The notes under the pieces are model-generated. The model made no database searches, had not been told where the DNA came from, and saw only the letters and a program-made list of their open reading frames with translations. Positions 2,085-20,576 of a stretch of DNA of 64,000 nucleotides are shown here, piece by piece. Positions within the stretch are counted from its first letter, which is position 1. Each line of letters opens with the position of its first letter. Made by a program: the position numbers and the translations under genes. Source of the DNA: a bacterium (lineage in GTDB: Bacteria > Verrucomicrobiota > Lentisphaeria > Victivallales > GWF2-38-69); contig JAJXWI010000003.1 in NCBI GenBank assembly GCA_021781705.1, forward strand, positions 2,919-66,918, in the 5' to 3' direction.

Positions 2085-2627
2085 ATGGTCCCCACTAAAG
2101 TTTTCTTCACTAAAGGCGTAGGAGTTCATAAAGACAGGCTGGCAAGTTTTGAGCTTGCTCTCAGAAAAGCTGGTATAGAAAAGTGCAATCTAGTTTATGT
2201 GTCGAGCATTTTTCCGCCGCACTGCAAAATAGCGCCAAGATCTTATGGTATAAAACTTCTCAAGCCGGGGCAGATTACGTTTTGCGTAATGGCCAGAAAT
2301 GAAACTAATGAGCCTAACAGATTAGTATCTTCTGCCATAGGGTTGGCAGTACCTGTTAACAGGGATTCTTATGGATATTTGTCAGAGCACCACGCATTTG
2401 GTGAAACAGATGAAATATCAGGAGCGTATGCGGAAGATCTAGCGGCAACTATGCTAGCTACTACCCTGGGGATAGATTTTGACCCTAAAGTAGCATGGAC
2501 AGAAAGAGAACAGATATACAAGGCCTCAGGGAAAATTTTTGAAAGTACAAAAAAAGTCCAGTCTGCAATCGGCAATAAGGACGGATTGTGGACAACAACA
2601 ATAGCTGTTGCTGTATTTATTGAATAG
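2085..2627 (+). CDS. pdaD: Pyruvoyl-dependent arginine decarboxylase
   Basis: 180 aa; [12 protein letters not shown] start and [10 protein letters not shown] self-cleavage-type serine motif typical of PdaD; AGGAG-like RBS upstream; followed by agmatinase. Confidence 0.85.
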
Positions 2628-2649: not shown

Positions 2650-3498
2650 ATGGCAAGATATGGCAACTTCCCTGAAACTTTCACACAATACGACAATTCG
2701 AAAATAGTTATTCTTCCAGTCCCGTACGATGGAACGAGTACTTGGGGGAAGGGCGCAGACAAAGGGCCTGAGGCGCTTCTTGATGCATCGCATTATCTTG
2801 AAAATTATGACATTGAAACTAATTCAGAGCCTTATAATTTAGGAATTCATGTAACTTCTCCTGTAACTGAATCCTTAAGTCCAGATGCGATGGTTGCCGC
2901 CGTTAAAACAAGAGTTTCTGAACTTATTAGAGATAGCAAGATGGTTGCGATGATAGGCGGAGAACACTCCGTAACTATTGGCTCAGTTCAGGCTCATTGT
3001 GAACATTATCCTAATATGTCAGTAATTCAGCTTGATGCGCATGGAGATTTGCAGGAAGTCTATCACGATTCGAAATATAATCATGGATGCGTAATGGCTC
3101 GGGTAAAAGAAGTTTGCCCTTTTGTTCAAGTCGGAATAAGGAGCATGGATGTGGCGGAAGAGAAAAATATGTCCAGAGAGAGGGTTTTCTTCGCTGAGAA
3201 TATTTATGACCATGATAGGTGGATAAATAAAGCAGTATCTTTGCTCTCCGATAATGTTTATATTACTATAGATTTGGATGTTTTTGAGCTTGGCTCAATG
3301 ATGTCAACAGGGACGCCTGAGCCTGGAGGGCTGGGATGGTATCAGATTCTTCATTTGCTGAAAAAAATCGTAAACAAGAAAAATGTGGTGGGTTTTGACA
3401 TAGTAGAACTTTGTCCCAAAGAATTTTACAGGGCGCCTGATTTTCTTGCAGCAAAACTGTTATATAAGATTCTGGCATACATTTATACCAAAAAATAA
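2650..3498 (+). CDS. speB: Agmatinase (arginase fold)
   Basis: Arginase-family metal motifs GGEHSVT, QLDAHGDL, ITIDLDVF, TGTPEPGGL; adjacent to pdaD, giving an arginine to putrescine route. Confidence 0.85.
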   Translation: MARYGNFPETFTQYDNSKIVILPVPYDGTSTWGKGADKGPEALLDASHYLENYDIETNSEPYNLGIHVTSPVTESLSPDAMVAAVKTRVSELIRDSKMVAMIGGEHSVTIGSVQAHCEHYPNMSVIQLDAHGDLQEVYHDSKYNHGCVMARVKEVCPFVQVGIRSMDVAEEKNMSRERVFFAENIYDHDRWINKAVSLLSDNVYITIDLDVFELGSMMSTGTPEPGGLGWYQILHLLKKIVNKKNVVGFDIVELCPKEFYRAPDFLAAKLLYKILAYIYTKK

Positions 3499-5957: not shown

Positions 5958-7403
5958 TTAGATAAAAGACTTTTCGTGTCCTATTATAACCATGGTCTGG
6001 TCATCAGACTGCTCTTTATTTTCTGAAAATTCGTCTACGGCTCTTAATATTTTATCAGTACTTTTGCTAGGGGAATTTTTTTTGCAACACGATTCATAAA
6101 ATATCGTCTGCAGATTATCGATTCCGAATTCATCGCCTCTGTTATTTAGTGATTCTATTATGCCGTCAGAAAACATCAATACCGTGTAATATGGTTTAAA
6201 ACAAAATGAGATTGAATCAAAATTCCCAGTAAGTTCATTCGGGAGTAATCCAAGCGCAGTACCATGCGGCCTTAGTTTTCTTATTTTTTTCTTGGAAGAG
6301 TATACCATCAATTCAGTATGTCCGGCTCTGGCAAATTCCACGCTTTCCTCCTGCCTGTCTAACAAGCAGCAGGCAATAGTTGCATACCTGCCTTCATTTG
6401 TGTCTCTGTAGAGATTGGAATTCAGATCAGACATTAAACTGCTCAAGCTTGTAAATCGCTCAGAATTTGCCCTAATAAAACTTCTGGCCATTGTCATTAT
6501 CATGCACGCAGGAATCCCTTTTCCGCTGGCATCTCCAAGTACCACTAATAATCTGTTTTCATCTATTTTTACAAAATCGTAAAAGTCTCCATTCACTTCT
6601 TTTGCGGATCTCGTGAAAGCGTGTATTTCAAAAGGCTTCCAGACCGGAAACTCTCTGGGAATCAAAGATGCTTGTAATAATCTTGCAAACTCAATTTCCT
6701 GATTAAGTCTGTCCTGCTTTGCTGCGACTGAAAAAGTTTGTATTATCTGATGTATTACCGAAACTAATTTTGAAACTGCATCAAACATGGCAAATTGCTG
6801 TTCCGTAAATAGCGAAGTTGCTTTATTGTTTATTGCGCAAACAACCCCCACTACCTGTTCGTTTATAATCATGGGGACTACCATGAGGGAGGATACGGCA
6901 GTTAATGATTCTTCCGAAGAAAGAAGTGCTGCCTCTTTGGATCCTAACAATACAGCTTTTTTACTCAGGCCTACTTCTCCTATGATACCTTCTCCCAATT
7001 CTATTTTTTCTTGTTTTAGTACATCTGTCAGAAACCTAGGTTTACTGAGAATGAAATCTCTTGAGATGTTCAAGGGGGTGAAAGCTTCAGAGTATCCTAC
7101 AGGTATAAAATATTTATTTTCATGTAGATTGTAAATACACACGCTCTCTGCATCTATAAGAGCTGCTATTTTCTCTGCTATGGATGTGTATACATTTTCA
7201 CTTGTAGAATAACTGCATAATTTCTCCGAAAAAAAGTTTACAAAACTACCTATTTCCGTATTTTTTCTAAGGCTGGATACAAGCTTTGTTTCAAGCAGAA
7301 TAACTTTTTTCCTATAAGACAAAATCAAAGCGCCGGCAATGATCAAGGCTATCGTTACCAGACCGCTTAAGGCCAAGATTACAAATATCTCTAATGGAGA
7401 CAT
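5958..7403 (-). CDS. Membrane-anchored GAF-domain PP2C (SpoIIE-family) serine phosphatase
   Basis: N-terminal TM helix, central GAF-like region, C-terminal PP2C motifs GDFYDF, LGDASGKGIPA, SDGIIE, DDQTMVI. Confidence 0.75.
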   Translation of the reverse strand: MSPLEIFVILALSGLVTIALIIAGALILSYRKKVILLETKLVSSLRKNTEIGSFVNFFSEKLCSYSTSENVYTSIAEKIAALIDAESVCIYNLHENKYFIPVGYSEAFTPLNISRDFILSKPRFLTDVLKQEKIELGEGIIGEVGLSKKAVLLGSKEAALLSSEESLTAVSSLMVVPMIINEQVVGVVCAINNKATSLFTEQQFAMFDAVSKLVSVIHQIIQTFSVAAKQDRLNQEIEFARLLQASLIPREFPVWKPFEIHAFTRSAKEVNGDFYDFVKIDENRLLVVLGDASGKGIPACMIMTMARSFIRANSERFTSLSSLMSDLNSNLYRDTNEGRYATIACCLLDRQEESVEFARAGHTELMVYSSKKKIRKLRPHGTALGLLPNELTGNFDSISFCFKPYYTVLMFSDGIIESLNNRGDEFGIDNLQTIFYESCCKKNSPSKSTDKILRAVDEFSENKEQSDDQTMVIIGHEKSFI

Positions 7404-7555
7404 ATTATTCTCATTACTTTCGTTAGTAAATTAATGCGGTATGCGCTGCTACTTTCTAATTAACACTTATCTTAATATTATTTGTATCCAAATAAAAAGT
7501 AAACACTTTTCATAATTTTATGGAATTATATCTTGGCATGACAAAAGGTCTCAAT

Positions 7556-8479
7556 CTAGGGAAAAAAGCGTCTTGATATTATTTTCCACCTGATTTCCGT
7601 ATTATTTTTTTTACAAAACCATGCTTCTGATTTAGATGAATCAGCATAAAATCCTGCTATTTTCTTGATCTCATTATAGCTACATCTAAATAATATAGCA
7701 GGGATGTTTGTAGTTGAAAATCCTGATTTGGCCAGATACCTCTTTGCTTTCTTATAAATATTTACTGATATTTGGTTTCTTATAAGGAGAAATAACGGAT
7801 AAACAAGTATTAGAACCCAGAAAAAACCGCTATTTAATTCGCTACAGAAATATGCTTTGTAAAATTGGACGAGAAACAGTAACAGTATGGGAAGGAATAA
7901 TAAGAGTGAATCTAGAGGGTTTCTGAAGCAATTGCCAAAATGCCTTCTTATTGGGCTAGAGGACAAGTTATAAGCAAAAAATTCCTCCAGCATGTTGTCT
8001 TTTATCGGCATCCTTGCTGCGTGGCACAATTCATGGGTTATGATTTCTTGTAAAGAATAAATCAACCACTTGCTTTTATGTTTGAATTTTCTACTGATCA
8101 ATATGAATGAAAGCCCCGACTCGAAAGTTAAAGTACATGCGCCAGCCAGCAGGCCTATATTCCTGTGGAAAAAAGCGTCAACCCAGTTTATTTGAAAACC
8201 GTACTTTTGAGTAAGCGCTAAATTCGGTGCGATATATTTGTCTTTTGGTAGTTGTTCTTCTGCTTTTATTTCGATTTTGCTATCAATGCAAACATCTTTT
8301 TTTACATTAATCTCAGAATTTACACGAGCTGTATCGCTGCAAATTTTCAGAAGCCTGATTTTGTATTCTATGAAACTTTCATTTACTCCCAACAAGAACC
8401 CTTCTGAGTCCAAATAGCATAAAGCTTCTAAATCTTCTTTTTTTAGATTGTTCACCCGTTCTTTATCCAGAGGAAACAT
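7556..8479 (-). CDS. Hypothetical membrane protein with HExxH motif (putative zinc metallopeptidase)
   Basis: ITHELCHAARMP...LEEFFAY (HExxH plus downstream Glu) followed by hydrophobic helices. Confidence 0.4.
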   Translation of the reverse strand: MFPLDKERVNNLKKEDLEALCYLDSEGFLLGVNESFIEYKIRLLKICSDTARVNSEINVKKDVCIDSKIEIKAEEQLPKDKYIAPNLALTQKYGFQINWVDAFFHRNIGLLAGACTLTFESGLSFILISRKFKHKSKWLIYSLQEIITHELCHAARMPIKDNMLEEFFAYNLSSSPIRRHFGNCFRNPLDSLLLFLPILLLFLVQFYKAYFCSELNSGFFWVLILVYPLFLLIRNQISVNIYKKAKRYLAKSGFSTTNIPAILFRCSYNEIKKIAGFYADSSKSEAWFCKKNNTEIRWKIISRRFFP

Positions 8480-8505
8480 TTCTGAATAATTCCAATTAAA
8501 TAAAT

Positions 8506-9027
8506 TTAGATTTTATGTTTTGTACCACTATCCTTTTGAGTATCTGATTTTGTCCTATCTTTAAAAGGAGTTTTTATAAATATTTGTTCCTGTATCTTCG
8601 TGAAGGCTTCCTGATAAGTTTCAGGAGTTTGTACCGCCGTATCTCTGGCGATTGTTCCACTATTTTGCTGGGTGTATTCTGTATGCCTGACAAAGTTTAA
8701 TCTTATTTTTGTGTTACTATTATCAAGTTCTTCGATAAAAGCTGTAGCTTTCATTTTTTGGTTGCCGCTAAAAAAATCCTGAGTGTTCGGACTTTCAGCG
8801 GTTATGAATCCCGTATTGTATTCTGCCGAGTTTACGATGTACCCCAAATCCTGAAATACAGTCATTACCGAACCAAAAGCTATTTTTTTAGGTGTTTCAA
8901 ATTCTCTGGACTGTATAGACTGGATCTGTAAACTTGTCATTTGCGGTGGTGGTGTAAAAAATTCACACCCTGAAAAAAACAAACAGAAAATAAATGCTAT
9001 TACTGGTATTCTATAGGTTTTGCGCAC
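8506..9027 (-). CDS. Lipoprotein, unknown function
   Basis: GTG start after G-rich RBS; lipobox-like FFSGC after hydrophobic leader. Confidence 0.55.
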   Translation of the reverse strand: MRKTYRIPVIAFIFCLFFSGCEFFTPPPQMTSLQIQSIQSREFETPKKIAFGSVMTVFQDLGYIVNSAEYNTGFITAESPNTQDFFSGNQKMKATAFIEELDNSNTKIRLNFVRHTEYTQQNSGTIARDTAVQTPETYQEAFTKIQEQIFIKTPFKDRTKSDTQKDSGTKHKI

Positions 9028-9044
9028 TTGATTTCCCCCCTATT

Positions 9045-9455
9045 TTAGAAGTTTGCTGACATAAATTTAAAGTCTTTAACTTTTTTATCGTCGTCGAACT
9101 TTATTATTAAAGTTGCTGTTTTTGTAGACTGGTTATATCCGCCCTTGCTAGAGTTAATCCCAGCAAGAATAATTGTTGCATAGTAACCGTCGGAGCTGGA
9201 GGTAGCTGTCATTGAGTTTTTCTGGTAACTCCACACCTCATTTCCCGCACCATCTGTCGTTATAATGTTGGGAGCTCCAAAAGCCCCTAGTACATCAGCT
9301 TGAGAAGTTTCACCCTTTTTGAGATTTAGCTGTATGTTGGCCTGAGTGAGTGTTGTGTCGGTGGTTGAATCTTTCTGTGGTGACGAGCAACCCGTCAGTA
9401 AAACCAGCATGAAAGAAATCGTAATACCCATAACTGTTTTTAGAAAAAATTTCAT
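9045..9455 (-). CDS. Lipoprotein, unknown function
   Basis: Internal Met MKFFLKTVMGITISFMLVLLTGCSS gives signal peptide + lipobox; the longer track ORF start (9503) is less likely. Confidence 0.55.
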   Translation of the reverse strand: MKFFLKTVMGITISFMLVLLTGCSSPQKDSTTDTTLTQANIQLNLKKGETSQADVLGAFGAPNIITTDGAGNEVWSYQKNSMTATSSSDGYYATIILAGINSSKGGYNQSTKTATLIIKFDDDKKVKDFKFMSANF

Positions 9456-9692
9456 TTTGCACCCACTCTCTTTTTTACTATAGAATTTTGTTTTATAGGC
9501 CATACTATATCATGAATGATCCTGCTTTCCATGACAGAAATATAATTTTTCCTTGCTGTTTTGGGTAATTGCCTTTATACTTAAATTTTGTGGCAAGATG
9601 ACATCCATATTTTTTACCGACGTATTGTGAGTTTCCCACTAAAACGAGCGCTCAAATACAGTAAAATAAAAAATATAGGAAAAGATATAAAA

Positions 9693-9893
9693 ATGAAACC
9701 CAGAGTATTCAGTTTGAAATTCGTTGGTACGTTTATATCGGTAATGATGGGAACGCTTGCAATTACTCCAACAGAAAGCCTAGCGAACGATTATGCGACA
9801 AATGTAAGGGCAGTAACCAAAAATGCAGCAATACCTACCACTCATGCAGAGCTGCAAGAAGATCAGAAACCTGCCTACGCCCAGGTGTTTTAG
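9693..9893 (+). CDS. Small secreted hypothetical protein (66 aa)
   Basis: Met at 9693 preceded by AGGAAAAG; MKPRVFSLKFVGTFISVMMGTLAITPTESLA looks like a signal peptide. Confidence 0.35.
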   Translation: MKPRVFSLKFVGTFISVMMGTLAITPTESLANDYATNVRAVTKNAAIPTTHAELQEDQKPAYAQVF

Positions 9894-10292
9894 AGCGCTA
9901 CAACTCTTTTAAAAAGGCCCCATCCTGCCGGCAAGAAGACAAGGATCATCTCGATAGATACTTATATGCCAATGGATATTTTTTACACTAATGTGCTTTA
10001 AAGACCCAGAATTTTCTAACTCCCTTATGTCTTCGTATAGCGACGTTTTGAAGGCTGCCATACTCGAGAAATGCAGTTCTTTTCAGGGCGCGGCACGGTC
10101 CCGGTCCAGACCAGTATTGGCAGTGCATGAAAGATGTGAGAGCATCTATGGAGACTCCTTGGAGTAAAGGGTTGCGAGACGCATTTGTCGATAGGTATTC
10201 AAAGCGCCCCGCCCCCTGCACCTACAACTCGTATAATTATCCGCTATACGACAGGCCATAGTCGATTAATAGCAACACCGCGGGCAGATGCT
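9894..10292. ncRNA. Candidate structured RNA, unclassified (GC-rich island between convergent genes)
   Basis: Markedly more GC-rich than flanks; long-range complementarity CGTATAGCG (~10035) / CGCTATACG (~10243) and CTGCCATACT / AGTATTGGCAG; only poor ORFs. Confidence 0.25.
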
Positions 10293-11711
10293 TTACTTTT
10301 TTTTGAACAGCTCTTTTTGTATATTCAAAAATTTCATTTTATTGTAAAATCCTCGGGAATGTATACCGGCAATTTTTGCAGCTTCCCCTACTCTGCCTTT
10401 AGTTTTTTTAAGAATCATTTCAATATAAAGTTTTTCCGTGTTTGCTAGAACTTTATTTAAAACTTCAGGTAGAGTTTTGTTTTCCCATTCTGTCGGACAT
10501 GCAGTTTTTTCTCCTGATATGGATGAAGTATTAGTAGCATTTTCACTAAAATTTTTCGGCAGGTGGTCTGGGGTAATAGTATTTCCCTTGCAGAGAATTA
10601 CGGTCCGTTCCAATACATTCATAAGCTCCCTAATGTTTCCAGGCCAGTCATATAAGCATAACGCACTCATTGCGGTGTCTGAAATCCCGAAGATTTTTTT
10701 TGCATATTTTTTCCTGTAAAAATCTATAAAATTCCTACTTAGTGATGGTATGTCTTCGCTCCGTTCTCTTAATGGTGGGATTGTCAGAGTCACAACATTC
10801 AGTCGGTAAAATAGATCTTTTCTGAATGTGCCCTTATTTACTTCTTCTTCTATGTCCCTGTTTGTCGCGGCTATAACTCGCACATCTACCCATATTGCCT
10901 TTTCTCCACCAATCGGTCTTAATTCGTAATCCTGTAATACTCTCAAGAGTTTTGACTGTAAATGTAAAGGCATCTCTCCTATCTCGTCCAGAAAAATAGT
11001 TCCATTGTGAGCCAATTCAAAAGCCCCTCTCCTGGATCTTATCGCACCTGTAAATGCGCCTTGTTCGTGCCCAAAAAGCTCGCTTTCCAGCAGCTGTTCT
11101 GGTAACCCTGCTATATTCACAGGAATAAAGGGACCTTTTGATCTTAAACTTTCCGCATGTATCGTTTTTGCCAGGTGCTCCTTGCCTACACCTGTCTCTC
11201 CCAGTATTAAAAGCGGAGTGTTATTTGGTATTATTTGCTGAACTTCATCCATGAACATTCGCATTTTTTCATTGTTTGACGAAAAATCCGCAAGCTTAGG
11301 AGATGCCTTTATTTTATAGTCAACCTGATTTTGCTGATAAAATTTTCTTCTTGACTCAACAGCTGTGTATATCGCTTCAGCAATGCTTGTATCTTGTATG
11401 CCTGCGTATAACACTACGTCTGCTCCGCACGCAAATAACTTTGCGTGCTCCTCCGAAGAATCCCTGTTGTGCAGCAATATTGTTGTTGGCATTTCAGGAA
11501 GCGTATTTAATAATGAAATACTGGATTCTAGAGACAACGGTACAAAAGACTCGCTTATTACTATTACATCGCCGCAACTTCTCACGAGTTTTTGCCAAGG
11601 CGATTTTAAGTGCCCCATACATACTACTTCTATGTCAGGAAGCTCAAAATAATCTTCAATATATTTTTCTAATTTTCTCTCTTTTACAACTAAGAATAAT
11701 CTGATTTTCAT
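10293..11711 (-). CDS. Sigma-54-dependent transcriptional activator (NtrC-family EBP) with degenerate receiver domain
   Basis: AAA+ core GETGVGKE, ESELFGHEQGAFTGA (GAFTGA loop), RVIAATNRDI; C-terminal Fis-type HTH; N-terminal REC-like fold lacks the acidic pocket and phospho-Asp. Confidence 0.85.
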   Translation of the reverse strand: MKIRLFLVVKERKLEKYIEDYFELPDIEVVCMGHLKSPWQKLVRSCGDVIVISESFVPLSLESSISLLNTLPEMPTTILLHNRDSSEEHAKLFACGADVVLYAGIQDTSIAEAIYTAVESRRKFYQQNQVDYKIKASPKLADFSSNNEKMRMFMDEVQQIIPNNTPLLILGETGVGKEHLAKTIHAESLRSKGPFIPVNIAGLPEQLLESELFGHEQGAFTGAIRSRRGAFELAHNGTIFLDEIGEMPLHLQSKLLRVLQDYELRPIGGEKAIWVDVRVIAATNRDIEEEVNKGTFRKDLFYRLNVVTLTIPPLRERSEDIPSLSRNFIDFYRKKYAKKIFGISDTAMSALCLYDWPGNIRELMNVLERTVILCKGNTITPDHLPKNFSENATNTSSISGEKTACPTEWENKTLPEVLNKVLANTEKLYIEMILKKTKGRVGEAAKIAGIHSRGFYNKMKFLNIQKELFKKK

Positions 11712-12005
11712 TTTTTAAAACCTTTTTGACCTTAAATTAAAAATCAGCATAAAAATGCCTGTTTTATTAGTAAATACAAGTATTTATTTGCTGTTTTTGC
11801 CTATTATTGGTTAGCGCTTGCGGTCATTTGATCTGCAACTCAATTTTCAAGAGCAAATATTAAGAAAAAAAATACTGAAATAATCATTTTTTTTAATTCT
11901 TGAAGATGTTTTAATTTAGAAGTAAATGAAAAAACGAAAGATTCAACACCTAACATACTAACAAGCAACATTTTATAAAAATCATTGTTTTTTTACTAAA
12001 AATAT

Positions 12006-12021
12006 TGGCATATATACTGCT
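12006..12021 (+). promoter_or_regulatory. Sigma-54 (-24/-12) promoter candidate
   Basis: TGGCATATATACTGCT places GG and GC at the spacing of consensus TGGCAC-N5-TTGCW; ~75 nt upstream of the 12097 start; divergent from the EBP gene. Confidence 0.55.
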
Positions 12022-12096
12022 TCAGTGAATATTAACGGTTGGTTTTTAAAGATGTCAGAATCGTGAAATAAAACATAAGGAGAGCCTTTATCTAAA

Positions 12097-13065
12097 ATGT
12101 ACAAACTAAAAGTTGTAGATGATGTTGAAGAGTGCGCGTGTATATGGAAAAAACACTGGGATGCAACAAGTCTTTTTGATTTATGGGATGTTCGGAATTG
12201 CTTTGTTGACTCCTTCAAAAGAAACAACATATTTATAGTACTGGAAAATGGTGGGGACATACAGGGTGTTTTACCGCTAAGCTGGATAGGGGAATCTAAT
12301 TTCTACTCTTTCTTTCCTGGAGAGTCATGGCATGGAAAGACATGGCTTGAACAAAACAAGGTCTTTGCTGCAGATAATAATGCTTTCCAAATTTTAATTA
12401 ATAATATTCCCGGGCCGGCCCATATGCGTTATATGAGTGCCAACTCGCTTTATTTTAACGACAGTCTGACTTTTGATGAATCCAACTACCATCTTTACCC
12501 CGGAGAGTTTGATTACACTTTTGACGGGTATATGCAGAAGTTTTCCAGTAAGTCCAGAAAGAATCTATCCAAGGAAGTTTCCCGGTTTTATGAAATGGGA
12601 GCTAAACTTAGATATAACAAGCTTGAAGATATCGAGGCTCTGTTTGAAATGAATTTAGCTGCTTACGAAGAAGATTCTTACTTTAAAGACCCAAGATTTT
12701 ACAACTCCTTCCAATCTTTACTGAAATGGTTATATGACAATAAATTGTTGAGAATAGTAACTGTAGAAATAGGCGGAAAAATAGCTGCTGTGGATATTGC
12801 ATCTCAGTACGGCTCTGAATATGTCGTTCTTTGCGGGGGGACAAATCCTGAATTTCCTGGTATTGCGAAACTTATTAATTTTCATCATATTGAGTGGTCT
12901 TGCTGGAACCGTATGAGAAAAATAGACTTTTTGTGCGGAGATTTCGGATGGAAAGAACGTTTTCACCTTACCTCAAAACCGTTGTATGAAATAAATCTGC
13001 TTACGGCTCAGGAAGCTAAGCTAAGCGAAGGGCAAAGAGAAGACACCGGTACATATGGGATCTAA
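12097..13065 (+). CDS. GNAT-fold acyl/aminoacyl-transferase (CelD/FemAB-like)
   Basis: 322 aa; C-terminal half (LRIVTVEIGGKIAAVDIA...VLCGGTNPEF) resembles the CelD/BioF2-like GNAT family from memory. Confidence 0.5.
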   Translation: MYKLKVVDDVEECACIWKKHWDATSLFDLWDVRNCFVDSFKRNNIFIVLENGGDIQGVLPLSWIGESNFYSFFPGESWHGKTWLEQNKVFAADNNAFQILINNIPGPAHMRYMSANSLYFNDSLTFDESNYHLYPGEFDYTFDGYMQKFSSKSRKNLSKEVSRFYEMGAKLRYNKLEDIEALFEMNLAAYEEDSYFKDPRFYNSFQSLLKWLYDNKLLRIVTVEIGGKIAAVDIASQYGSEYVVLCGGTNPEFPGIAKLINFHHIEWSCWNRMRKIDFLCGDFGWKERFHLTSKPLYEINLLTAQEAKLSEGQREDTGTYGI

Positions 13066-14311
13066 GGTATTAATAGTTGGAACTACGCCAGATTATGTTG
13101 AATGGATTAGAACCTTGCTTAAGTGCGAGGTTTTTTTCATTACCGATTTGAAAGCTAGAAGAAATGCTGTTGAATCATGCCCTGCACCAGTGGAAGAAAT
13201 TCTTTGCAACTTGTCTGACTATAAAAATGCTATTCTCGCTCTCAAAGAACATATAAAACATTACAATATTGAAGTTGCTGGGATCACGTGTTTTGATTGT
13301 GAGTCAATGGAGCTTGCATCATTTATCGCTAATGAACTGAGCCTTAATTTTCAAAGTTCATCTGCAGTACATAATTGCAGAGATAAATTTATATCAAAAG
13401 CGTATTGGAAAGAAAAGCAGCTGTTTACACCCCGCATAGCAAAGATAGAGGGCTTTGAGCAGGCAGAGATTTTCTTTCAAAATATAAAAGGTCAAGTCTG
13501 TGTATTAAAGCCATCTTCAGGCGCAGGAAGTGAATTGGTCTTTCTTTGTCACAATTTAGCAGAGCTAAGGCAGGCATATGAAAAAGCTTCCGAAGGGCTG
13601 AAAGAAAAAACTGGAAACATGTTGTATGATTCTCCTGCTATAAAGAGCTCATTAATATTGGAGGAGTATATTTCAGGAACGGAATATAGTTGCGATTTTA
13701 TTATTAAAGATGACGGTGTAAAGATAATAAGATTGACTGAAAAAATAAAATTCCCAGGACAGATTTTTGGCATTATAGACGGGTATAAATTGATTAATTT
13801 TATTTCTGGCATTTCTGAGAAAAAACTGTATGATACTTTATATAAAGCGGCCTCTTCGGTAGGATTAAACAATTCAATATGCATGATAGATTTTATAGTA
13901 AGAGACAGGAATATTTTTCTTATAGAAATAGCTCCGCGCCCCGGCGGGGATTGTTTACCTCACTTGCTTGAAATAGCTACAGGACAAAATATTTTGGCAG
14001 TAAATATTGATTTAGCGAAGGGAAAAATGCCACAGCTGCTAGATTACAAAACCATTAAACCGTGGATTGCTCTGAGAATATTTGCAGATAGAAAGGGAAT
14101 TTTGTCCGAAATAGACGTTAAAGAACTTCTTAAAAATCCAATGGTTTCAAAAGTTAATATAACATCCTACAAGGGGAAAAATATAGAACTGCCCCCAAAA
14201 GATTATGATAGCTGGGTTTTAGGGAATATTATTCTTAAGCCTGATGTAGCTGATAATAGTTATTCTGTAGCAAAAAAAATAATCGGGCTAGCCCGTATAA
14301 AGATAGATTAA
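13055..14311 (+). CDS. ATP-grasp domain protein (carboxylate-amine ligase type)
   Basis: 418 aa; VLKPSSGAGSELV, EEYISGTEYSCDF, IEIAPRPGG layout typical of ATP-grasp; overlaps the upstream ORF by 11 nt. Confidence 0.7.
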   Translation: MGSKVLIVGTTPDYVEWIRTLLKCEVFFITDLKARRNAVESCPAPVEEILCNLSDYKNAILALKEHIKHYNIEVAGITCFDCESMELASFIANELSLNFQSSSAVHNCRDKFISKAYWKEKQLFTPRIAKIEGFEQAEIFFQNIKGQVCVLKPSSGAGSELVFLCHNLAELRQAYEKASEGLKEKTGNMLYDSPAIKSSLILEEYISGTEYSCDFIIKDDGVKIIRLTEKIKFPGQIFGIIDGYKLINFISGISEKKLYDTLYKAASSVGLNNSICMIDFIVRDRNIFLIEIAPRPGGDCLPHLLEIATGQNILAVNIDLAKGKMPQLLDYKTIKPWIALRIFADRKGILSEIDVKELLKNPMVSKVNITSYKGKNIELPPKDYDSWVLGNIILKPDVADNSYSVAKKIIGLARIKID

Positions 14312-14323
14312 TGGACAATAGGG

Positions 14324-14635
14324 CTAAAGGTTAGTTTTTTTTTCCAGTTCACGAAGAATTATTTCTACTGGGGTCAGATATTTTTTCTCATTGTTGCAGT
14401 TCTTACAGCATGGCGTCACATTTCCCTTAGAAGTTTTTCCTCCCCTGGATAATGGTACGATGTGGTCCATCGTTAATTCGCGTGACGAAAATTTTTGTTT
14501 ACAGTAGTGGCAAACTCCTTTTTGTATTTCGTTTTTCCACCAAGCAGTTTTTTTCAATTCCTCTACTTTTTTCTTTTCTCTGGCGATATGTACAGGATCT
14601 TTTTGTATGTCAATCCAATCAAAATCTGAGTGCAT
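14324..14635 (-). CDS. Small HNH endonuclease-domain protein
   Basis: CHYC...DHIVPLSRGG...NVTPCCKNCNNEK (HNH with two CxxC pairs); 8 nt downstream of the lptD-like gene on the same strand. Confidence 0.8.
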   Translation of the reverse strand: MHSDFDWIDIQKDPVHIAREKKKVEELKKTAWWKNEIQKGVCHYCKQKFSSRELTMDHIVPLSRGGKTSKGNVTPCCKNCNNEKKYLTPVEIILRELEKKTNL

Positions 14636-14643
14636 ATTATACT

Positions 14644-17262
14644 TTAGTAGGTGTGAGGTTCTTCTATTACATCATTGGGAAACAGGCTTTCCCTAGGTAT
14701 TATTTCATAAGCAGGGGTTGCGGTAAATTGTAGAGAAGCAGAAAAATCACAATAGGTAGCTTGTCCATTGCTATTGTTATTAGTTTTCTGGCTTGCATTT
14801 GCATTCAATATTACTTGAAGATTGCAGGGAAGATCTCGTGTAAGAGTTACGCCTGCACCTGGGTACATATTTTCGAAAAAATCATATTGTATGTTAAAGC
14901 TACCCCTTGTTCTATCATTTATTTTAAAGTTTAGCCCCGTGGTGCAGAATGATGATCTTTGATACATTCTTTGGAAAAAAGTACCGCTTTGTATCTGTTG
15001 TTCCAAGCTGCCCATAGAGTAAGTTGAATTGGTATTATTGTCCGTGGAAGAGTAATAGCTTCCTGTAAACCCCCACCCATCCGCAAAAGTCCAGGTGCCT
15101 ATAGTATTAAATGATGTTAAGCAGGTGTCAAAATTACTTCCTACCATTCGTCCTGCATCTACTAATATTTGAGAGCTAAGTGTTAAGTCTTGTGTAGGTG
15201 TGATTTTTATAACATTCCCAAAATCTCCTAAATTCTTCATAGACCCGTTGGGTTCATCTTTTCTACTATCTGTATCGAAAAGGAAATCCAAATAATTATG
15301 CATCTGCGCCCAAGTATATGCTTGAGAAGATTTCCATCCCCCCCTCCTTGTTTGAAGCCTGTTGTCTATTCCTGTTCTTACAAAATTTTGAGTATCTATA
15401 CGATCAATATCATCAAAGTACAAAATATGATCTCGTTTTTTGCTTGGTTGAAGAAATGTATAATCTACGTAAGGTGTGGTTACATGCCTTACCCCGTTCA
15501 TATCCCAGAAGGCATTTTTTACTCCCTCCCAGGATTGAGAGGCTTTAGTATTAAGGTTCATCCCGAACTCAGGAATAAATCTGGCATCAGATCCGCCAGA
15601 GGTATCATAATTATTGAATGTTACCGCCGATGTACTCTCCGGCTGAGACACGGCTATCATATTGTTTAAATCAGTATCAGACACCGCAGTATTTGAACTT
15701 TTATTGTACCCTGTAAGCCTGAATCCGGCCCTAGGGATAAGATTAAAAACATCCATCTGAATAGGGTAATAAGCAAAATTTACTGTATCAATTTTCCAGC
15801 CACTGTAGTTTGCCGGATTAGGCAAATTGCCCGGTCTGGGATTATTAAATTCTGTCCATCTTTGATTAAGGTATGAAACTTGAGTTTGCCCCTGGTGATA
15901 AATGTTAGCAAATAATTCCCGTCTTGGTATGGTCAATTGTAATTTTGGGAGTTCCTGAGCCGTTGTATACCACGTATACGTCTGCGGGCGAAGATTTGCG
16001 CTCAACGCACCCCAGTCAAATTGATAGTCTAAATTCGCGTAAGTAGATGGAGCCGGGTCTATACTTGCTATGGCGCCAAAGTAATCATATAGAAAATATT
16101 CATCGCTTATTTTTGCGAATCTTCCTCTGAAGTCAAGCCTGTCATTGAGATGTGTAAAGTTCCTCACGTCTACGTCGTATCTGTAAGGGTTGAATGGTTT
16201 GAAGCGGCTGTTATCAGGTGCGGAATAATCAGGAATATTATCATTTATGCCGTACAAAAAGGATTGTGTTACTGAATTTGGGGTTGTTACTTCGGTGGCA
16301 TTGCCATATCCAAATCCTCTGATGCTATAGTAATCAAGTAAATTAGAAGTACCTATTTTAAGATCTGGAGTGTCCCAGAGATCCCAGTTATTACTTGTTC
16401 GAAGATATCCACCAAGTTGCGTACTATTTCCATACGTAAATGCCCAGTTCCCCATTCTGTTCGGTGGCGGTTTGTACATTATTGGCAGCCAAAATACCGG
16501 CATACTCCCTATATAAAGAACATTATTATAGGCCCAAAAATGATACTTATTTAAATTTGACACACCTGAATTTAATGTCGTTATCCCATCTGAAGATACG
16601 TCACCACCCGAGGGAAATGCGTTTACTTCGCTCGAGTTAAGACTATAAACTGAATGTCCTTCAAGATAAGAAGAACACGGGCTTATTGAAGCATCTTTTA
16701 TTACTATTTCTCCATCTGCTTTTCTTGTTGCTTTGTCCCCAACGACAGTCCATCCACCTAGATTTGCCTGAAAAGTACCAAACTCAAAAACTCCAGTTAT
16801 TAAATTTCCCATTGCCCTGTCGCCATGCCATGTAAGCACCTGTTTTATAGTATCTACCATCAGTATTTGCCGCCCGGATGGAGTCATTACCGTACCTACA
16901 ACTTGAATTTTGACATTGGGATCTTTTTCAAGTTTTCGGACATCCCAGTACTCCATTTGCTGTCTGGAACGGACTAGATTGTAAAAACTTACGTTCCCTG
17001 ATATTTCTATGTTTTTATTTGTGTTATTAACAATTGCCTTATCTGCATAAAATATTATATCTCCTTTTCTCACGAATATATTTCCGTAAGCGACCATATT
17101 GTCACCAATATATTCGAATGAATCTGCCTTTGCGTTAAGTCCTTGTATTGCTTTTAGAGTATCAATATCGAAAGCTAGCGATTGGGATGTGTGGAAAATA
17201 AAAATGCTGTTGAATAGCAGTAAACCTATAAAAACTTGTAAAACTTTTTGCATTGAGTTCAA
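14644..17262 (-). CDS. lptD: LPS-assembly outer-membrane protein LptD-like
   Basis: 872 aa, signal peptide, OstA-like N-terminal region (GNIFVRKGDIIFYADKAIV...ISGNV), aromatic/Gly/Asn-rich beta-barrel-type remainder. Confidence 0.55.
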   Translation of the reverse strand: MNSMQKVLQVFIGLLLFNSIFIFHTSQSLAFDIDTLKAIQGLNAKADSFEYIGDNMVAYGNIFVRKGDIIFYADKAIVNNTNKNIEISGNVSFYNLVRSRQQMEYWDVRKLEKDPNVKIQVVGTVMTPSGRQILMVDTIKQVLTWHGDRAMGNLITGVFEFGTFQANLGGWTVVGDKATRKADGEIVIKDASISPCSSYLEGHSVYSLNSSEVNAFPSGGDVSSDGITTLNSGVSNLNKYHFWAYNNVLYIGSMPVFWLPIMYKPPPNRMGNWAFTYGNSTQLGGYLRTSNNWDLWDTPDLKIGTSNLLDYYSIRGFGYGNATEVTTPNSVTQSFLYGINDNIPDYSAPDNSRFKPFNPYRYDVDVRNFTHLNDRLDFRGRFAKISDEYFLYDYFGAIASIDPAPSTYANLDYQFDWGALSANLRPQTYTWYTTAQELPKLQLTIPRRELFANIYHQGQTQVSYLNQRWTEFNNPRPGNLPNPANYSGWKIDTVNFAYYPIQMDVFNLIPRAGFRLTGYNKSSNTAVSDTDLNNMIAVSQPESTSAVTFNNYDTSGGSDARFIPEFGMNLNTKASQSWEGVKNAFWDMNGVRHVTTPYVDYTFLQPSKKRDHILYFDDIDRIDTQNFVRTGIDNRLQTRRGGWKSSQAYTWAQMHNYLDFLFDTDSRKDEPNGSMKNLGDFGNVIKITPTQDLTLSSQILVDAGRMVGSNFDTCLTSFNTIGTWTFADGWGFTGSYYSSTDNNTNSTYSMGSLEQQIQSGTFFQRMYQRSSFCTTGLNFKINDRTRGSFNIQYDFFENMYPGAGVTLTRDLPCNLQVILNANASQKTNNNSNGQATYCDFSASLQFTATPAYEIIPRESLFPNDVIEEPHTY

Positions 17263-19208: not shown

Positions 19209-20576
19209 ATGAATCGTGACATTGCTATAATTAAGTTGACAATAATAAGTACAATCAGAAGCTATTCTTTTATTTCTATAACTCTACTAAGTTGTATTTT
19301 TGCTTTTTTCATACCTCTGACAGTTTTTAGCGGCGGCGGTTTGGTGGATTTATTTCAAATTCGTATAGATTACTCTCTCGAAATATGCTCAATTCTAATT
19401 TTTATTTCATCTGTTTGGTCCGGCTGCTCTATCATGGCTGAAGATATTGAGCTGTATAAAATTCATATGCTGGTAGTGAAGCCTATTTCCAAGCTCAGAA
19501 TATGGCTCAATCGGTTCTTGGGGGTCTTTATTATTCATCTTTTATTTTTGATGTTAATTTCATTCATCATTTTTTTGATGCTCCATATTATGTCCAATAA
19601 AGGCTCTTTATCATCCCGGGAAAAAATTGAAATAAAGGAAAAGGTTTTTACGGGTAGAAAAAGTTATACAAGCCAACTAAGCGGGCTTAATGAAGAATAT
19701 TCCGGAGAGCTTAATGCAAGAATTAAAAATACCACCCTTTCAGAAAGCGAAAAGATAGAGATGGGAAAAAAGGTAATGTATACCATTATTTCCAGGAGGG
19801 GGGAAGTTAAGCCGGGAGAAAGTAAAACTTTTCTCTTTAACGTCGTGAAGACTAACTATTCTAACAACTCGAATTTTAAGTTTATGCTTTACATAGGTTC
19901 GCCCGATATGCTTGAAAGACAAAACAGACCAAAAGCAGAAGGAATATGGTTGTTACAAGTCAATAACGAAAGGGGCGTTAGTCTTGGCGAAAAACCTGAG
20001 ACTTTTATTTCAAATAATAAATACGAAATGAGTATCTCATTAAAGAATTTGTCAGAAGGGGAAAATGTTATTAAACTGACATACCAGAATTTAGATAAGG
20101 ATAGATCTGTTTTTTTCAGAGTAACTGAGTTTCCCCAAGTACAGATTAAGAGCGCAAATTTTATTGAAAACTACTTAAGATGCTTGTTGATTATGGCTCT
20201 TGGAATCGCTCTCTTATCAGCAATAGGATGCGCTTTGGGATGTGTATTTTCATTTCCTGTTGCGGTGTTCGTCATGGCCGCATATTTACTCTTTGGCAGC
20301 CTTGGTAATTTTATTTTGTCAGGCAACGAAATTTTTCTAAAAAATGACGATATTCAGTTAAAAATAGGGTACAGTCTTAGCAAGTCCTTTTTGAAGGTGA
20401 TTACTCCAATTCAAAAATTTCAGCTCTCTGAATATATTTCCACGGGGATGCTGATCGATAATGGTACTATTATGGAAACTATCAGAAAATATTTTTTGAT
20501 TCAGTTTTTAGCTATTTCGGTGATTGGAATATATGTTTTTTATAGGCGGGAATTAGGGATGGTTGCGAAAAGATGA
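19209..20576 (+). CDS. Putative ABC-2-type permease with large extracytoplasmic insert
   Basis: Hydrophobic helices at both ends with a ~200-aa polar middle; directly follows the ATPase. Confidence 0.45.
   Translation: MNRDIAIIKLTIISTIRSYSFISITLLSCIFAFFIPLTVFSGGGLVDLFQIRIDYSLEICSILIFISSVWSGCSIMAEDIELYKIHMLVVKPISKLRIWLNRFLGVFIIHLLFLMLISFIIFLMLHIMSNKGSLSSREKIEIKEKVFTGRKSYTSQLSGLNEEYSGELNARIKNTTLSESEKIEMGKKVMYTIISRRGEVKPGESKTFLFNVVKTNYSNNSNFKFMLYIGSPDMLERQNRPKAEGIWLLQVNNERGVSLGEKPETFISNNKYEMSISLKNLSEGENVIKLTYQNLDKDRSVFFRVTEFPQVQIKSANFIENYLRCLLIMALGIALLSAIGCALGCVFSFPVAVFVMAAYLLFGSLGNFILSGNEIFLKNDDIQLKIGYSLSKSFLKVITPIQKFQLSEYISTGMLIDNGTIMETIRKYFLIQFLAISVIGIYVFYRRELGMVAKR

Follow-up and report, generated by a model that had tools for sequence, protein, structure and literature searches.

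A predicted sigma-54 module in Victivallales and Desulfobacterota that pairs a pseudo-receiver enhancer-binding protein with a GNAT/ATP-grasp operon

A 64,000-nucleotide stretch of a Victivallales genome (assembly GCA_021781705.1, contig JAJXWI010000003.1, positions 2,919 to 66,918 of the forward strand; referred to here as the window) carries at 10293-14311 a gene for a sigma-54 enhancer-binding protein (EBP) that faces a small biosynthetic operon. From the listing of open reading frames (ORFs) and direct reading of the sequence, the order was found to be the EBP gene on the minus strand (10293-11711; 472 amino acids), a 385-bp A/T-rich spacer (11712-12096), and, on the plus strand, a gene for a GNAT protein of the Acetyltransf_6 (FemAB/CelD-like) family (12097-13065; 322 amino acids), followed by a gene for an ATP-grasp ligase of the ATP-grasp_4 family (13055-14311; 418 amino acids). 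The ATP-grasp start codon lies 11 nt ahead of the GNAT stop codon, giving an 11-nt overlap (13055-13065), and a ribosome-binding site, AGGAG (12078-12082, plus strand), stands 14 nt ahead of the GNAT ATG and is kept in an alignment of Lentisphaerota sequences. A first-pass annotation of the window had proposed two translationally coupled genes for a CelD/FemAB-like GNAT and an ATP-grasp enzyme, and both the coordinates and the Pfam matches agreed with that proposal. We consider it probable that the locus is a self-contained sigma-54 module, in which the EBP, bound at upstream palindromes, would activate a -24/-12 promoter of the GNAT/ATP-grasp operon, and in which the input domain is derived from a receiver yet would work without phosphorylation.

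The EBP matched the Pfam families Sigma54_activat (3e-68; 229 bits against a cut-off of 20.2), AAA_lid_14 (2e-27), and HTH_8 (1.3e-6; 28.5 bits against a cut-off of 22). Its AAA+ sigma-54 interaction domain covers residues 145-309 (10785-11279, minus strand), with the GAFTGA loop that contacts sigma-54 exact at residues 218-223 (11043-11060), and its Fis-type helix-turn-helix (HTH) DNA-binding domain covers residues 422-460 (10332-10448, minus strand). In an alignment of 21 homologues, the Walker A (GETGVGKE), GAFTGA, and Walker B (FLDEIGE) motifs were conserved, most positions being invariant. The protein therefore has what defines an NtrC-family sigma-54 activator, namely, a PF00158 domain with Walker A, Walker B, and arginine fingers, the GAFTGA loop, and a Fis-type HTH, and, as the first-pass annotation had held, this core is intact and strongly conserved. 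More than 120 full-length homologues were found at 57-92% identity, with PF00072 annotated on 0 of them, and a sequence identical to the window EBP occurs in the Lentisphaeria-type metagenome-assembled genome (MAG) GCA_027452705.1. None of the three module proteins fits a named NCBIfam equivalog. A defense-system reading was also considered and set aside; PADLOC gave no match for the GNAT or the ATP-grasp protein, and the EBP matched only RtcR-type models through its AAA+/HTH part.

The N-terminal region had been called receiver-like from its sequence. A Pfam scan of residues 1-143 was empty even at E values of ≤10, with the FleQ domain and Response_reg included, but the predicted fold was that of a (beta-alpha)5 receiver; the receiver likeness cannot come from Pfam and rests on the predicted structure. 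An AlphaFold2 (AF2) model of this domain alone, built from 37 family members, had a mean predicted local distance difference test value (pLDDT) of 90.4 and a predicted template-modeling score of 0.84, and consisted of five successive strand-helix units, the last helix spanning residues 107-131. When the model was compared to the PDB with Foldseek, the top 50 matches were essentially all receiver domains, and the best were the receiver-plus-ATPase structures 4l4u and 1ny5 of Aquifex aeolicus NtrC1 (TMq of 0.73-0.78 over 132 residues; 4l4u at the top with 0.78). As modeled, the N-domain thus has the CheY-like fold of a canonical receiver, and on the basis of fold, Foldseek matches, and residue alignments, we assign residues 1-131 (11319-11711, minus strand) to a putative pseudo-receiver domain with a long alpha5 linker helix. 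Sequence searches placed the domain farther from ordinary receivers. When residues 1-140 were compared by phmmer to 1.8 billion cluster representatives, only 60 proteins came up, and the N-domain is therefore a narrow family rather than an ordinary receiver; the family profile gave marginal matches to receivers in the PDB (E = 0.006-0.3), and its hhalign comparison with an approximate CheY sequence gave nothing beyond a meaningless 23-column match. A full-length AF2 model of the EBP (21 sequences) was poor (pLDDT of 59; about 30 in the AAA+ core) and was excluded from the fold search.

Among characterized regulators, the EBP has the same three-domain order as A. aeolicus NtrC1 and Sinorhizobium DctD, which are receiver-AAA+-HTH EBPs under negative control. 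NtrC1 was the closest structural match for the N-domain plus linker, the long continuous alpha5/linker helix being common to both, and the phmmer alignment between the two proteins (residues 16-384; E = 1e-74) ran through the N-domain. Unlike NtrC1 and DctD, however, the window EBP has no phospho-Asp, acidic pair, Thr, Lys, or cognate kinase, and identity within the N-domain is about 16%. The receiver positions were mapped by phmmer alignment to NtrC1 and by family-profile alignment to the receiver 6ont, and the two independent alignments agreed. They place V9/K10 at the positions of the acidic pair, S53 at that of the phospho-Asp (aligned with D54 of NtrC1 and with the Asp of 6ont), H81 at the Thr position, A103 at the Lys position, and G104 at the Pro that follows it. 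In a sample of 120 full-length homologues, position 53 was Ser in 115 and Asp in 1, position 10 was Lys in 89 (the family having I/V/L plus Lys in place of the acidic pair), position 81 was His in 97, and position 103 was Ser, Ala, or Thr in 107 and Lys in 2. The N-domain thus lacks a match to the Response_reg hidden Markov model as well as the phospho-Asp, the acidic pair, the Thr/Ser, and the Lys of canonical receivers, which upholds the first-pass view that every canonical phosphorylation residue is gone; a conserved phospho-Asp did not appear in any of these alignments. The old phospho-pocket is not eroded but refilled by other residues (K10, S53, and H81) that are themselves conserved.

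Elsewhere in the domain, D48 and D98 were invariant in the same 120 homologues and C46 was present in 117. The near-invariant residues fell into two groups, one on the alpha4-beta5-alpha5 face (E87, A90, G96-A97-D98, E112, A113, and R121) and the other in an alpha2/alpha3 patch (W39, Q40, C46, D48, N69, and L71-P72-E73-x-P75). Identity of the N-domain between Lentisphaerota and Desulfobacterota is about 50%, and this level of conservation across two phyla marks the residues that matter. Receivers of the NtrC family dimerize on alpha4-beta5, and ligand-binding pseudo-receivers often employ the alpha2, beta3-alpha3, and alpha3 region (PMC12632262). The same pseudo-receiver type occurs at 25-31% identity in a broader, rare EBP superfamily whose members have about 470-570 amino acids (P0135, P0143, P0147, P0149, P0153, P0154, P0162, and P0170), with the W, D48, LPxxP, and AG[AC] conserved. 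In a few members of this superfamily, the receiver positions still contain a DD pair or an Asp; this agrees with an origin from a true receiver and suggests that phosphorylation was lost stepwise.

FleQ and FlrA are likewise sigma-54 EBPs with a receiver-fold N-domain that lacks both phosphoacceptor and kinase, and FleQ is counted among the pseudo-receiver proteins (PMC12632262). Similarity between the AAA+ regions of FleQ and the window EBP was strong (E = 3e-71). In contrast to FleQ, the window N-domain has no match to the FleQ Pfam family, the target is a small biosynthetic operon rather than flagellar or exopolysaccharide genes, and no FleN-like neighbor was seen; the EBP family is not FleQ-like in sequence, partner, or regulon.

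For comparison across genomes, one genome per species was scanned with the N-domain alignment, and ORFs in the recovered loci were called and clustered. The scan gave 80 loci, comprising 3 from Lentisphaerota/Victivallales, about 75 from Desulfobacterota (Desulfobacterales, Desulfobulbaceae, Desulfatiglandales, Desulfamplus, Desulfobacula, and others), and 1 from a MAG labeled Nitrospirae. The GNAT gene was divergent from the EBP gene in 61 loci (45-72% identity) and was followed by the ATP-grasp gene in 49 (40-52% identity), so that the two enzymes form a conserved, co-inherited unit. The genes that flank the module differ between the phyla, and the module seems to have passed between them as a unit. 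The upstream neighbor of the EBP was always the target operon, and among the downstream neighbor proteins a HATPase_c domain was found in 2 of 101 (two per locus, related loci). It is therefore unlikely, as had been suspected from the window sequence, that a cognate histidine kinase controls the EBP, and the EBP is an orphan. Since both the phosphorylation residues and the kinase are missing relative to NtrC1, the activating cue must be something other than phosphorylation.

The Ser found so regularly at the acceptor position, together with the near-invariant C46, raises the alternative of covalent control that does not use Asp. A Ser/Thr kinase would add a phosphate to S53 (or to a different residue) and a PP2C phosphatase would remove it, or C46 would act as a redox switch. 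A membrane-anchored GAF-SpoIIE/PP2C phosphatase is encoded three to four genes from the EBP (5958-7403, minus strand), and Cys redox switching is documented in the pseudo-receivers RitR and HP1021 (PMC12632262). However, the phosphatase gene is not kept beside the EBP outside the window species, no kinase is conserved in the neighborhood, and C46 is situated in the loop between alpha2 and beta3, with the old active site on the other face of the domain. We therefore regard covalent control as improbable.

The first-pass annotation had also placed a -24/-12 element about 295 bp from the EBP, and this element was confirmed. The sequence TGGCATATATACTGCT (12006-12021, plus strand; TGGCAT-N5-CTGCT) is separated from the EBP start codon by 295 nt and precedes the GNAT ATG by 75 nt on the coding strand, with the GG-N10-GC spacing and the TGGCA and TGC(A/T) contexts of a sigma-54 promoter. 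It was scored with a position-weighted TGGCACG-N4-TTGCW pattern, on which it reached 19 of a maximum of 21.5, and compared to the region between the EBP and the first operon gene in 70 nonredundant loci. A site scoring at least 19 was present on the operon strand in 93% of these loci, versus 1.4% on the opposite strand and 0.6% of shuffled sequences; both strands of the 64-kb window held 3 sites at this level, of which the other two were intragenic. In the Lentisphaerota alignment (the window and three relatives), TGGCATA and TGCT were invariant, and the surrounding spacer was about 66% identical. The element is thus conserved across phyla ahead of the orthologous operon, and the prediction of a -24/-12 promoter in the window is well supported by genome comparison. 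Were the match fortuitous in AT-rich DNA, the operon could instead be read from a sigma-70 promoter, and a 9/12 match (TTGGCA-17-AATATT) does overlap the element. Matches of that kind, however, occurred in the region at the level of chance (11 found versus 10.3 expected), conservation falls on the GG and GC dinucleotides and not on the putative -10 hexamer, and the strand specificity of the element across loci is likewise at odds with a chance match. A sigma-70 origin for this operon is consequently very improbable.

Candidate enhancer sites were obtained by enumerating inverted repeats in the intergenic regions of the 70 loci; plain 7-mer enrichment had returned only A/T-rich words. The palindrome GGTA-N6-TACC was exact in 33 of 70 loci, far above every other arm that was not pure A/T. 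With one mismatch allowed in the 8-base core, 118 sites were found in 58 of the 70 loci, compared to 0.16 per locus in shuffled sequences (about tenfold enrichment). The extended consensus is ATCGGTA-N6-TACCGAT, and positions relative to the T of the -24 element formed tight clusters at about -100 and about -130 and again from -250 to -340. GGTA-N6-TACC is, on this comparative evidence, a conserved predicted EBP binding motif at enhancer distance. The window was then scanned with a position weight matrix (PWM) built from all loci except those of its own species, and the matches ranked 2, 3, and 4 in the 64 kb all fell inside the 385-bp spacer. These predicted upstream activating sites are AGCA-N6-TGCC, a degenerate palindrome at 11743-11762 (-260 from the -24 T; 11.0 bits), AGTA-N6-TGCT at 11776-11795 (-227; 10.7 bits), and AGAA-N6-TACT at 11860-11879 (-143; 10.0 bits, the weakest copy). 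They correspond to the sites at -249, -216, and -132 of the Lentisphaerota loci L007 and L008, where the -132 site is perfect, and the 33-bp spacing of the first two is the same in L007 to L009. Half-sites in the window read GCA or GTA, and the TGCC half-site variant is also seen in several Desulfobacterota sites. The best PWM match in the window (33185-33204; 12.7 bits) was rejected as a probable chance match; it falls in a dCache-HAMP-PAS-GGDEF gene (33037-35529), within the 3' end, and no -24/-12 element is close by. Likewise, a 43-amino-acid ORF given by public gene calls within the spacer (window about 11840-11971, minus strand; 7741-7872 in L001) was considered spurious, the A/T-rich spacer being poorly conserved. 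Its span lies between site 2 and the promoter and overlaps site 3.

The two distal sites stand 32-84 bp ahead of the EBP start codon, and autoregulation of the EBP through them is therefore likely, as their placement suggests. That the distal sites overlap the region just 5' of the EBP gene would also suit a simpler scheme, in which the N-domain serves constitutively for dimerization or stability and senses nothing, the EBP is permanently active, and output is set only by EBP abundance (through autoregulation) and by the availability of sigma-54. Such a scheme would be in keeping with the alpha4-beta5-alpha5 dimer face as the most conserved stretch of the domain, with the lack of a conserved partner gene nearby, and with the frequency of intrinsic dimerization among pseudo-receivers (PMC12632262). 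It does not account well for K10, S53, and H81 or for W39, C46, D48, and LPExP, which are as conserved as the dimer face, something unexpected for a purely structural domain. Moreover, sigma-54 systems with multiple enhancer sites are costly in energy and are normally signal-gated, and the locus has three such sites. On this balance, a permanently active EBP seems unlikely.

The operon differed in content between the two phyla. The Lentisphaerota version, including that of the window, consists of the GNAT and ATP-grasp genes alone, whereas most Desulfobacterota operons have four genes, with two added decarboxylases. The first gene of the four encodes a pyruvoyl decarboxylase of the AdoMet_dc family (about 141 amino acids; 44 loci; Pfam 3e-21), and the last encodes a pyridoxal phosphate (PLP)-dependent decarboxylase of the Orn/diaminopimelate (DAP)/Arg type, which is DAP decarboxylase-like (about 435 amino acids; 53 loci). 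Both were well under the cut-offs of the S-adenosylmethionine decarboxylase (AdoMetDC), LysA, and FslC models, with the PLP enzyme partially similar to LysA and to the N-citrylornithine decarboxylase FslC. In a Desulfobacula variant, the operon is cut to the AdoMetDC-like gene and the GNAT gene. Six Desulfobacula loci (L033, L037, L050, L057, L066, and L086; about 11400-14500) also carry a second EBP paralogue 1-2 kb downstream of the first, preceded by a conserved 80-amino-acid ORF and a DksA/TraR-like zinc finger protein. In six Desulfobulbaceae loci (L047, L049, L052, L058, L062, and L039; about 6500-10000), the orthologous EBP faces genes for citrate synthase II-like, SET-domain, and lysA-like decarboxylase proteins; the GGTA-N6-TACC sites are the same there, and the TGGCACCATATATGCT promoter is identical. 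A diaminobutyrate (DABA) decarboxylase-like gene lies convergent downstream of the EBP in the same variant, and the gene content hints at citrate/diamine chemistry. In one Lentisphaerae MAG (L009, 4700-7249, minus strand), genes for a periplasmic binding protein and a fused double ATP-binding cassette (ABC) permease follow the ATP-grasp gene on the same strand and may serve the module in uptake or export; in L007, this pair of genes is found about 6 kb off.

Neither operon enzyme has a characterized close relative. The GNAT matched Acetyltransf_6 (PF13480; 1e-17; 65.1 bits against a cut-off of 22) and, weakly, FemAB_like (0.005); its homologues carry PF13480 and form a narrow family, with 430 members recovered from 5.8 billion clusters at E ≤ 1e-5, each annotated only as "GNAT family" or "hypothetical," and sequence and profile searches of the PDB found no solved relative. 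The ATP-grasp protein matched ATP-grasp_4 (PF13535; 2.9e-17; 63.2 bits against a cut-off of 27) and, in the PDB, only the uncharacterized structural-genomics entry 4dim (2e-16). It was distantly similar to L-amino-acid ligase-like proteins (DdaF, 5e-8), and the named equivalogs DdaF, Ddl, RimK, LysX, and cyanophycin synthetase were all far under cut-off (32 versus 840 for DdaF and 28 versus 243 for Ddl). ATP-grasp enzymes join a carboxylate to an amine, and FemAB-like GNATs place an acyl or aminoacyl group on an amine; from such a pairing we infer synthesis of a small peptide or aminoacyl conjugate. Since the fuller operon adds two decarboxylases to these amide-forming enzymes, the product is most likely an acylated or aminoacylated amine, a conjugate made from a polyamine or a basic amino acid, although this is a guess, if the most economical one. 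A putrescine route lies about 8 kb from the module in the window, consisting of a PvlArgDC gene (2085-2627, plus strand; 5.5e-59) and then an arginase-family, agmatinase-like gene (2650-3498, plus strand); no regulatory link between this pair and the module was found.

Known pathways offered partial parallels for such a product. Ngg is a bifunctional GNAT/ATP-grasp enzyme in the synthesis of N-acetylglutaminylglutamine amide, and DdaF is an L-amino-acid ligase; an acyltransferase and an ATP-grasp ligase that build an N-acylated, dipeptide-like solute provide a tentative lead for the module. In contrast to Ngg, the two activities of the module reside in separate proteins, the GNAT is of the Acetyltransf_6 type, and no AsnO-like amidotransferase is linked. 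The PLP decarboxylase of Desulfobacterota also matched the model for FslC of the rhizoferrin pathway (3.7e-27; 95 bits against a cut-off of 500). A decarboxylase acting on a ligase-made N-acylated amino acid would fit the gene set, and the Desulfobulbaceae variant has a citrate synthase paralogue; in contrast to the rhizoferrin pathway, however, the module has no nonribosomal peptide synthetase-independent siderophore (NIS) synthetase, and the window operon has no decarboxylase.

The mix of genes also resembles the PEP-CTERM/exosortase A set (PrsR TIGR02915, TIGR03019, and TIGR03099), which combines a sigma-54 EBP, a FemAB-like acyltransferase, a DAP decarboxylase-like enzyme, and a carboxylate-activating ligase. 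FemAB-type transferases and this exosortase A-associated FemAB/decarboxylase set are thought to modify envelope polymers, and the GNAT/ATP-grasp pair might accordingly decorate an envelope polymer (a peptidoglycan stem peptide, an exopolysaccharide, or a lipid) and make no free small molecule. Similarity to the FemAB model TIGR03019 (8.6e-5), the PLP decarboxylase model TIGR03099 (4e-23), and the regulator model TIGR02915 is consistent with this possibility, as are a weak similarity of the ATP-grasp protein to Ddl and pseudomurein ligase and the presence of MurJ, a BamE-like protein, and a large outer membrane-like protein among the window neighbors. The module components matched all three models weakly, however, and far under the curated cut-offs (21.7 bits for the GNAT versus 260 for TIGR03019; 82 versus 478 and 307 versus 503 for the others). 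In addition, no module protein was flagged as membrane-bound or secreted on cursory inspection, and the genes around the module are not conserved between the phyla. The ligase of the exosortase set is AMP-forming, and PrsR acts as a genuine response regulator whose kinase is PrsK; the module ligase, in contrast, is of the ATP-grasp type, and no exosortase or PEP-CTERM proteins were seen. The likeness is one of functional analogy and not of family membership, and envelope modification is a possible, if rather doubtful, role for the enzymes.

The self-contained sigma-54 module that we favor would operate as follows. Dimers of the EBP would bind the three GGTA-N6-TACC-type palindromes 140-260 bp upstream of the -24/-12 promoter and, by analogy with the biology of the family, would form an AAA+ ring that uses ATP and the GAFTGA loops to open the sigma-54 holoenzyme complex, so driving the bicistronic, translationally coupled GNAT/ATP-grasp operon. 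The input domain would descend from an NtrC1/DctD-type receiver, having kept the fold, the alpha4-beta5-alpha5 dimer face, and the long alpha5 linker and having lost the phosphorylation chemistry. In the off-state, the receiver-fold dimer and linker helix would most likely hold the ATPase in an inactive dimer, as in NtrC1, and release would depend on a nonphosphoryl cue, for example a small ligand, a shift in redox state, or a partner. The remodeled pocket (K10/S53/H81) and the alpha2/alpha3 patch (W39, C46, D48, and LPExP) are the candidate sensing sites. The candidates for the cue are a ligand in the pocket or on the patch, oxidation of C46, or no cue at all (a constitutive activator). A more specific version would have the old pocket (K10, S53, H81, and the small residue at 103), flanked by the acidic, Cys-containing alpha2/alpha3 patch, rebuilt as a noncovalent ligand site. 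The EBP would then be a one-component metabolite sensor that responds to a cue such as a phosphoryl-mimicking anion, a polyamine, or a basic amino acid and switches on a new amide-linked amine-conjugate pathway common to both phyla, where the product might be derived from a polyamine or be a chelator of the citrate type or a thiol-like compound of low molecular weight. We put this version forward tentatively, as a speculation that could well be wrong.

Several observations weigh against the proposed module. The three window sites are degenerate copies that depart from the 8-base core at 3-4 positions, and the proximal one is the weakest. A search with the RpoN-box pattern did not find rpoN in the 64-kb window or in 86 fetched loci. 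The window operon is without both decarboxylases, and no homologue of either occurs across the 64 kb; the amine-conjugate idea is therefore borrowed from Desulfobacterota. The Desulfobulbaceae ortholog of the EBP appears to drive a different operon, and the regulon is thus not uniform. Finally, given the low pLDDT of the full-length model, the modeled structure is that of the N-domain by itself, and the whole EBP family is known from sequence and predicted structure.

A divergent EBP gene, enhancer sites, and a -24/-12 promoter are textbook sigma-54 architecture, and nonphosphorylatable receiver-fold EBPs such as FleQ and FlrA are already known. What appears previously undescribed is this family of pseudo-receiver EBPs, together with its defined enhancer motif and its uncharacterized biosynthetic regulon; beyond the first-pass annotation, the comparison adds the cross-phylum regulon, the upstream activating palindrome, the two added decarboxylases in most Desulfobacterota, and the refilled pocket. 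No mention of this combination of EBP and operon was found in the literature, including papers on the Desulfovibrio vulgaris sigma-54 regulome and on SpeD neofunctionalization, and the sigma-54 survey literature examined does not mention Lentisphaerota. How pseudo-receivers are switched on and off is largely unknown (PMC12632262), and this family, with a single orphan regulator, one promoter, a defined palindrome, and a small, compact regulon, provides a clean test case. The Desulfobacterota carriers are environmentally important sulfate reducers, and because the operon is tied to two decarboxylases in these organisms, it probably marks an unrecognized branch of polyamine or amino acid metabolism.

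Several other features of the window were recorded. A stand-alone HNH nuclease of 103 amino acids is encoded convergently (14324-14635, minus strand), 12 bp past the ATP-grasp stop codon; it also adjoins the module in the Lentisphaerota loci L007 and L008 (65-68% identity), not in Desulfobacterota, and PADLOC gave only generic HNH-domain matches to it (Cas9, IscB, PtuB, and restriction enzymes). Several large window proteins have no Pfam match, among them those encoded at 14644-17262 (minus strand), 19209-20576 and 20573-22069 (both plus strand), and 37372-39804 (minus strand); the group includes an 872-amino-acid protein with a TTG start, kept beside dapB in Lentisphaerota, and two proteins of 455-498 amino acids downstream of an ABC ATPase. 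A 386-amino-acid protein encoded at 24743-25903 (plus strand) carries a C-terminal zf-MYND finger (3e-10), a domain that is commoner in eukaryotes.

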